Below the pieces are notes generated by a model. The model did no database searches, was not told the DNA's origin, and saw nothing but the letters and a program-made list of their open reading frames with translations. Positions 15,764-16,415 of a stretch of 17,264 bases of DNA are shown here, in pieces. This DNA comes from a virus (lineage: Duplodnaviria; Heunggongvirae; Uroviricota; Caudoviricetes): the IMG/VR virus record IMGVR_UViG_2917408641_000003. The stretch is one strand, 5' to 3'. The stretch's first letter is position 1. The number at the start of each line of letters is the position of its first letter. A program made the position numbers and the translations under genes.

Positions 15764-16241
15764 AGTTTTGTGTCGCTCATGTATCAGTGAAAAGATGATC
15801 TTGTTCAGTAAGTCTGGAGGGGATAGTACCGCCAGCATCATCGGCTTTGGCCCAGTAAAAAGAGACGCGGGGTGCCATATGTCATGTATGGGTTCAGATT
15901 GCGCATAATTCACCAGTACCGCTATAAATTGTAAAGAAGCCGCGGCACGTCGTATGCAAGAACGTACTGCGGCTGGCTGACGTACGCTCGATAGTGCGAA
16001 ATTGAATGAAAGTCAGCCGGAAATAATCTTACATAATTGCTGTGAAATTATTCAACTCATAGATTGTTTATTTCTGCCTGGATTGGTCTGAAATAGTCCC
16101 GAAATTTTCTCTAAAAAACTCGAAAAAAATGGTAACTAATTGAATGCATTAACATGCAATGGCACGTGTTTGGGATTAAAAGATGAGCGTAATTTTGGTT
16201 AACGTATTAATTTAAAAAGGTTTTCTTTTTTGTTGACGAGA

Positions 16242-16267
16242 ACAGGAATCGTGTTCGGTCTCTTTTT
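16242..16267 (+). ncRNA. sdsR: SdsR/RyeB sRNA 3'-end-like segment (probable att core / prophage-host junction)
   Basis: ACAGGAATCGTGTTCGGTCTCTTTTT matches the recalled 3' terminus of enterobacterial SdsR (…ACAGGAAUCGUAUUCGGUCUCUUUUU) with one mismatch and ends in a U-run about 150 bp upstream of pphA, the known neighbour of sdsR; sequence 5' of 16242 does not resemble SdsR and the terminator stem partner is missing, so only a partial copy is present. Relies on recalled sequence, not a search. Confidence 0.3.
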
Positions 16268-16415
16268 ATCTATAAAGCCAGTTTGATAATGGCATTACTG
16301 CTTTTCCCTCACTGACTTCACAATCAACCATAACACACACTCTACTGCTTCAGTCCAGGCTTTTTTAACATTTTTGTTAAAATAATGTGATCTTATGCGC
16401 GGGAGTAAGGAATTG

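Follow-up and report, generated by a model that had tools for sequence, protein, structure and literature searches.

The window analysed here is a 17,264-nucleotide stretch (IMG/VR virus record IMGVR_UViG_2917408641_000003) of the Escherichia marmotae HT073016 chromosome (CP025979.1; GCA_002900365.1), which encodes a PphA protein identical to that of the window. Most of it is a prophage remnant with a myovirus tail module and an IpaH-family effector gene, bounded on the left and interrupted on the right by copies of the insertion sequence (IS) ISCro1. The phage DNA ends in a non-coding arm and gives way to host DNA carrying pphA and yebW (Table 1). At this boundary lies a short segment that matches the 3' end of the small RNA (sRNA) gene sdsR (also named ryeB). 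From the sequence comparisons described below we assign 16242-16268, with high confidence, as the attR site (P-O-B' in lambda nomenclature) left where a phage integrated at the sdsR 3' end. The full explanation, in which this site is the sdsR-end attR scar of a temperate phage that is now an IS-truncated, IpaH-effector-bearing fragment next to pphA, appears to us very probable.

The window contains a single copy of the 26-mer ACAGGAATCGTGTTCGGTCTCTTTTT, at 16242-16267 on the plus strand, which is identical at 26 of 26 positions to the 3' end of sdsR in Escherichia coli K-12 (NC_000913.3 1923104-1923207, minus strand). The original prediction had given a match to the sdsR 3' terminus with one mismatch. 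The match holds, and the mismatch arises only against the G-to-A variant GTATTCGG, found in the Rfam consensus, in E. ruysiae and E. whittamii, and in most of the other species sampled. No chance match was obtained in 200 shuffles of the window, even when three mismatches were allowed, and together with synteny this rules out chance or terminator convergence as the origin of the 26-mer. The remainder of the gene is missing, as had been predicted: the 5' 78 nucleotides and most of the left terminator arm are lacking according to both BLAST and Rfam. The BLAST alignment to the K-12 locus is confined to 16242-17264 (79.7% identity) and leaves the sdsR body unmatched upstream. The Rfam SdsR model (RF00111) reaches 19.5 bits at the junction (E 0.72, terminator part only, threshold 38), compared with 114 bits and 118 bits for the full genes of K-12 and E. 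coli M8, respectively. The alignment and this score exclude a complete, collinear sdsR gene at this position, and the exact 26-nt match is the opposite of a lack of similarity to sdsR; either outcome would have refuted a junction.

The core keeps two left-stem nucleotides, then the terminator loop AGGAATC (7 nt, 16244-16250), the right arm of the stem, GTGTTCGGTC (16251-16260), and the U-run. In place of GACCGAATAC, which forms the left half of the stem in the intact gene, the junction has GACGAGAAC. The residual hairpin is predicted at -8.3 kcal/mol, which is no better than shuffles (z -0.14), compared with -15.8 for the intact terminator. No intrinsic terminator was recognized at the junction, and a simple terminator scan of 15760-16460 was empty.

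On the host side, the alignment to K-12 and to uninfected relatives that the original prediction had proposed places the start of homology at 16242 in K-12, E. ruysiae and E. whittamii alike. All three are collinear with the window from this position and carry yebY-sdsR upstream of it. E. ruysiae and E. whittamii, the closest relatives compared, are 91% and 85% identical to 16269-17264, respectively, and by sequence their loci represent the empty site. The pphA gene of the window is about 80% identical in DNA to E. coli pphA and 91% to that of E. ruysiae.

On the phage side, 15935-16268 aligns at 93.7% identity with a segment of phage vB_Apl-pPE4 (PP818812.1), and the homology ends exactly at the end of the core. 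This segment can be recognized as attP because it sits between the tail-fibre genes and the integrase gene. The integrase has Phage_integrase and lambda Arm-DNA-binding domains (Pfam), as in lambda-type tyrosine recombinases. The motif CCCGAAATT...ACTCGAA, found at 16098-16124 in the window, is repeated in both the P and P' arms of the phage and is a candidate arm-type integrase site. Elsewhere, the P arm is 82-83% identical to the ends of IpaH prophages in IMG/VR and about 80% identical to prophage ends of enterohaemorrhagic E. coli (EHEC).

A complete example of the arrangement is provided by a prophage of E. coli M8 (NZ_CP019953.1, ~2.122-2.171 Mb). One of its ends reads yebY-sdsR-core-int-xis, with sdsR intact, and the other, about 49 kb away, reads tail fibres-P arm-core-pphA. 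Comparison of the attB, attP, attL and attR sequences bears out the attR-type junction of the original prediction, and the right prophage boundary that it had placed at about 16240 agrees with the host homology starting at 16242 and the phage P arm to the left. The E. coli M8 prophage also carries a RalR/RalA toxin-antitoxin pair beside int-xis (L129 4597-4775; Rfam RalA 222.8 bits).

Comparison with related sequences shows how the site arose: a lambda-type tyrosine integrase joined the phage core to the final ~26 bp of sdsR in the host. Because the phage brings its own terminator loop, right stem arm and U-run, its integration restores sdsR in full on the integrase side (attL), and the displaced host copy stays behind as an orphan by pphA. 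In a five-way alignment for E. coli M8, the two polymorphic core positions are A and T in attL, as in the phage, and G and C in attR, as in K-12, which places the exchange at or left of ACAGGAATCGT. From these polymorphisms and the dyad symmetry, strand exchange probably takes place in or beside the 7-nt loop AGGAATC, which would be the overlap region, with the stem arms as inverted core-type integrase sites. The partial left arm kept by the phage would be its C site. A crossover in the loop fits the attachment at the 'last 23 bp of ryeB' given for phage PhiW104 in PMC7380047 and PMC3333887.

The element itself has decayed. About 11.6 kb of phage DNA survive, not counting ISCro1 copy B, and its left end, at window position 1970, coincides with an ISCro1 end. 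No integrase, head, lysis or regulatory genes were detected in the remnant, and no integrase in the window or its left flank. In the related complete elements, a lambda-type integrase gene stands beside attL; the remnant encodes no cognate enzyme. The HT073016 element is thus an immobile fragment and no longer a prophage, and its junction is a fixed fossil.

The two ISCro1 copies have different histories. Copy B is a simple insertion into non-coding phage DNA with a 7-bp repeat (CATCGGG) on each side, and its uninterrupted target is seen in a related IMG/VR contig (L150). The reconstructed target yields no convincing open reading frame (ORF), and we rejected the idea that a gene was interrupted. 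The copy B transposase occurs in more than 22,000 sequence blocks. Copy A carries an IS4 within its tnpA region, outside the window (CP025979.1 563314-578885, L140 3921-8602). The ISCro1::IS4 composite has no target duplication, with TTAAGCGC on one side and AAAAGCTG on the other. Left of the composite lie the 3' 544 nucleotides of ycgR, followed by emtA, ldcA, cvrA and dadX (90.3% identical to K-12 1.2395-1.2443 Mb). The 8 kb to the left of the window therefore hold ISCro1/IS4 and then ycgR'-emtA-ldcA-cvrA-dadX, with no integrase-core-sdsR-yebY arrangement. The full sdsR copy that had been predicted at the left prophage end is thus not found at the contiguous locus, where the remnant ends at 1970 and IS sequence and then ycgR'-emtA follow; nor are the integrase and second core copy expected at the far end present in the 8 kb beyond ISCro1::IS4 in the source genome. 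About 260 kb away, a Qin-like prophage holds an identical 4.1-kb ISCro1::IS4 composite (CP025979.1 821171-836742, L141).

In K-12, ycgR' is ~0.68 Mb from the junction locus (map positions ~1.244 and ~1.923 Mb). The dif site lies near 1.59 Mb in K-12, and these two positions are roughly symmetric about it. Since a deletion between 1.244 and 1.923 Mb would remove core genome, we infer that an IS-mediated inversion, roughly symmetric about the terminus, most likely joined the remnant to ycgR'. Draft and read-derived assemblies that encode these proteins are broken at those IS ends too, so the arrangement is not peculiar to one assembly.

Several points weigh against an attR scar of this kind. The nearest empty site compared is that of E. 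ruysiae, at 91% identity, and not an unoccupied E. marmotae locus. For attP, the closest match is a phage record that names Actinobacillus as the host, and the crossover point is derived from E. coli M8 alone. Typing the core of the window as host- or phage-derived by its G/A and C/T positions was rejected, as both variants occur in native sdsR genes. The integrase and the second core copy are absent from the window and from the 8 kb to its left, and the inversion, like the transcription effects considered below, is something that we infer.

One alternative is that an IS-mediated or other deletion destroyed sdsR and left the 26 nucleotides behind in a genome with no intact copy. The chromosome is IS-rich, with 101 IS copies in total (PMC6650469), the locus has been rearranged by IS elements, and neither the window nor the adjoining 8 kb on its left holds an intact sdsR, all of which would suit a deletion. 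However, the attP core of an independent phage has its edge at exactly this base, as do E. coli M8 and the IMG/VR prophages, there is no IS end at 16241, and the DNA to its left is phage P arm, neither IS nor host. We regard a deletion as very unlikely. It is about equally unlikely that the fragment is functional, either as the end of a phage-borne or chimeric sRNA running from the P arm into an sdsR-like terminator, or as a terminator that shields pphA from phage transcription. The phage does retain a partial left arm and the U-run, and a degenerate hairpin can form, but the stability of this hairpin is at shuffle level, promoter- and terminator-like sites are absent from the scan of 15760-16460, all Rfam families are below threshold, and the partial left arm is more simply explained as the core-type integrase site of attP. 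Least probable of all is an intact, excisable IpaH prophage whose left end, with integrase and regenerated sdsR, lies just outside the window: the attR architecture is complete and related 47-49 kb prophages exist with both ends, but the phage DNA stops at the ISCro1 end, the head, lysis, regulatory and integrase genes are missing, these IS ends also interrupt other E. marmotae assemblies, and the host ycgR'-emtA beyond the IS composite refutes an intact prophage at the contiguous locus.

The junction also bears on the regulation of the neighbouring genes, as it parts pphA and the promoter of the antisense RNA gene ryeA from sdsR. The -10 element of ryeA, identified from promoter-mutation primers (PMC6610125), is conserved as TATGGT at 16332-16327, and by homology to the K-12 ryeA start the start site lies near 16319. 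The Rfam RyeA/SraC model (RF00101) scores 21.4 bits here, below its threshold of 37; the promoter is kept and the body of the RNA is phage DNA. The ryeA transcript would run leftward through the 26-nt core into phage DNA, giving a chimeric RyeA that would pair only with the last 26 nucleotides of SdsR. Read-through transcription of pphA depends on the sdsR promoter (PMC6610125), and pphA would lose this sigma-S read-through. In Salmonella, lysogeny at the sdsR site lowers ryeA expression and raises that of ryeB (Balbontin et al. 2008, as summarised in PMC7380047 and PMC3333887). The loss of pphA read-through and the chimeric RyeA would thus be expected from the published E. coli and Salmonella work. 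Around 16285-16300, the interval between the sdsR U-run and the ryeA promoter contains 16-18 bp that are common to E. ruysiae and E. whittamii and missing in K-12, and which lengthen the predicted RyeA 5' leader.

A further step, that the scar and the IS rearrangement have permanently dismantled the SdsR/RyeA/pphA circuit in HT073016, is a tentative proposal that we consider rather doubtful. If true, pphA would be without its sigma-S read-through promoter, RyeA would be chimeric, and SdsR would be freed of its cis-antisense partner. As the site is also that of IpaH-bearing phages in Shigella-type genomes (see below), gain of an IpaH effector at the sdsR site would then bring the same rewiring of a stress-response sRNA module.

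The ryeA/ryeB (sdsR) locus is a recurrent integration site for PhiW104 and older islands in Salmonella enterica (Balbontin et al. 2008, through its summaries in PMC7380047 and PMC3333887), and the insertion hot spot beside pphA invoked by the original prediction agrees with these accounts. As described there, PhiW104 and the Salmonella islands attach within ryeA, at the final ~23 bp of ryeB/sdsR. Lysogeny alters ryeA and leaves sdsR in place at one end, and the site is reused for acquired DNA. The reading given here for HT073016 has these features in common with the Salmonella case. The HT073016 element differs from PhiW104 as summarised in these sources in its host, E. marmotae, in its decay to a remnant truncated by IS elements, in its myovirus tail module and IpaH-type effector, and in that its partner junction is not adjacent.

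The E. coli M8 prophage and PP818812.1 share with the window the same core, a P arm of 84-94% identity and the order tail fibres, P arm and core, followed in these two elements by the P' arm and int; the flanks yebY-sdsR and pphA are seen for the M8 prophage alone. Each of the two is a complete element of 47-49 kb that has both int and xis and, unlike the window, no NEL effector at the effector position, and the tail module of the window is largely unrelated to theirs in DNA. The arrangement also resembles integration into tRNA and tmRNA genes by P4, P22 and CP4-57-type integrases, in which the phage restores the 3' end of the RNA and an orphan fragment is left at the other junction. The dyad symmetry around a 7-nt loop is likewise that of an anticodon stem-loop at tRNA-gene sites. 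In contrast to these sites, the target here is the terminator hairpin of an Hfq-dependent sRNA, and integration has regulatory side effects because this target overlaps the antisense ryeA and precedes the read-through gene pphA.

The closest counterparts with an effector are four IMG/VR prophage contigs (L159, L160, L167 and L168), which we refer to Shigella or enteroinvasive E. coli (EIEC) by flank identity alone. They carry an IpaH gene by the tail-fibre genes, followed by the P arm (82-83% identity), the same core and pphA. They differ from the window in their K-12-type flank (99.5% identical to K-12, compared with ~80% for the window) and in their effector, which is only 67% identical in protein sequence. 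As these contigs share the P arm-core-pphA junction, IpaH-bearing phages, judged by sequence, use the sdsR site in E. coli/Shigella-type hosts too. In the literature searched, we found no paper that links ipaH to the sdsR attachment site. The EHEC strain 2013C-3342 was considered as a model lysogen and rejected as rearranged, its nleC prophage ending at pphA on one side and at wrbA on the other. In this genome (NZ_CP027766.1 640000-702400), a lambdoid nleC prophage has pphA at its right, and wrbA with a wrbA-type integrase at its left, which implies that prophages at two attachment sites recombined with one another or were joined by an inversion.

The site is used in other genomes too. An integrase of the PP818812.1/M8 type is joined to non-phage DNA within 5 nucleotides of the core in 228 of 5426 complete E. 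coli genomes. Species-representative Enterobacterales genomes contain at least 121 copies of the core among the matches listed, 110 of them in full sdsR genes and 11 in orphan fragments. A full sdsR and an orphan fragment occur together in at least four representative genomes, including a Citrobacter, a Kluyvera and a Candidatus Pantoea; the paired copies lie on the same contig, 4 kb to about 48 kb apart, in three of the four, and on two contigs in Kluyvera cryocrescens. Again among the matches listed, orphan fragments are found in Symbiopectobacterium, Candidatus Pantoea, Kluyvera, Brenneria, Leclercia, Buttiauxella, Citrobacter, Enterobacter and others (loci L013, L020, L021, L032, L042, L057, L060, L065, L085, L089 and L113), and pphA lies within 1.5 kb downstream in 26 of the 104 assessable full sdsR genes.

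The HT073016 junction is a further instance of a known hot spot, with modest added interest from its IpaH cargo and the decay of the element, and it leaves the current understanding of the site unchanged. On the chromosome, ISCro1 (IS66 family, 2699 bp) is present 19 times, and two genes are ipaH-like (PMC6650469). The junction sets the right boundary of one of these two E. marmotae ipaH-like loci and shows that the effector arrived on a phage targeting the sdsR attachment site. More generally, integration at an sRNA gene can keep the sRNA intact, yet part it from its antisense ryeA and from the read-through gene pphA, and orphan sdsR 3' fragments offer a cheap and exact marker of island boundaries for annotation.

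Table 1. Features of the 17,264-nucleotide window
Feature	Position	Strand	Basis or remark
ISCro1 copy A, right-hand part (tnpB, tnpC)	1..1969	+	99.5% identical to copy B, self-BLAST
Prophage remnant, myovirus tail/baseplate module (module proper 2075-10744)	1970..10744	+	ORFs, Pfam, gene table
IpaH-family effector gene (leucine-rich repeats (LRR) + NEL E3 ubiquitin ligase, 607 aa)	10815..12638	-	Pfam
ISCro1 copy B (IS66 family, 2699 bp)	13058..15756	+	self-BLAST, Pfam; length as ISCro1 in PMC6650469
Non-coding phage DNA	15757-16241
Phage attachment arm (P arm of attP), AT-rich, non-coding	15935..16241	+	93.7% identity to PP818812.1 45968-46301
attR core, orphan sdsR 3' end	16242..16268	+	alignments with K-12, phage, relatives
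Host intergenic DNA with ryeA (sraC) promoter	16269..16415	-	aligned with K-12, E. ruysiae, E. whittamii
pphA (serine/threonine phosphatase 1), host gene	16416..17072	+	Pfam Metallophos
yebW (DUF1482), host gene	17073..17264	-	Pfam, K-12 synteny

The tail module encodes an SLT-domain protein of 673 amino acids, a Dit-like protein, a baseplate hub, a sheath initiator, baseplate J, a wedge protein, a tail fibre and a tail-fibre assembly protein. Its DNA resembles known phages only at the tail-fibre tip. The effector matches the Pfam families NEL (1.3e-74, 250.8 bits) and LRR_4 (45.8 bits), and by its domains, an N-terminal LRR and a C-terminal NEL, it is a member of the IpaH/SspH family and a predicted E3 ligase. 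Its gene sits in the usual place for phage cargo, with the tail-fibre genes on one side and the attachment arm on the other. Within it, 12084-12302 shows self-similarity at a 60-bp offset (75.8%), consistent with tandem LRR units.

The host flank next to the hot spot is unusually divergent. In comparison with all 5426 complete E. coli genomes, the pphA-yebW segment (16269-17264) reaches only ~80% identity (84% over pphA-rsmF), and the ycgR-dadX flank across the remnant is 90% identical to K-12. The record PP818812.1 is labelled as a phage of Actinobacillus pleuropneumoniae, and its integrase/attP region (39968-47508) is 95-99.7% identical to prophages in 228 E. coli genomes. This host label looks doubtful, the attP core being the end of an enterobacterial sdsR.

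The phage end of the window has further relatives. Positions 15814-16009 resemble the ends of many Stx1- and Stx2-converting phages (about 73%) and of EHEC prophages beside pphA (about 80%), and from these alignments the attachment/cargo end appears to be a mosaic module common to lambdoid and myovirus-tailed phages. A sub-threshold Rfam match to CssrB, a Shigella chromosomal sRNA, was obtained at 15904-15971 on the plus strand (28.2 bits, threshold 76, E 0.001). This match lies mainly over an imperfect GC-rich hairpin just past the last phage gene, which in PP818812.1 is a perfect 13-bp palindrome.
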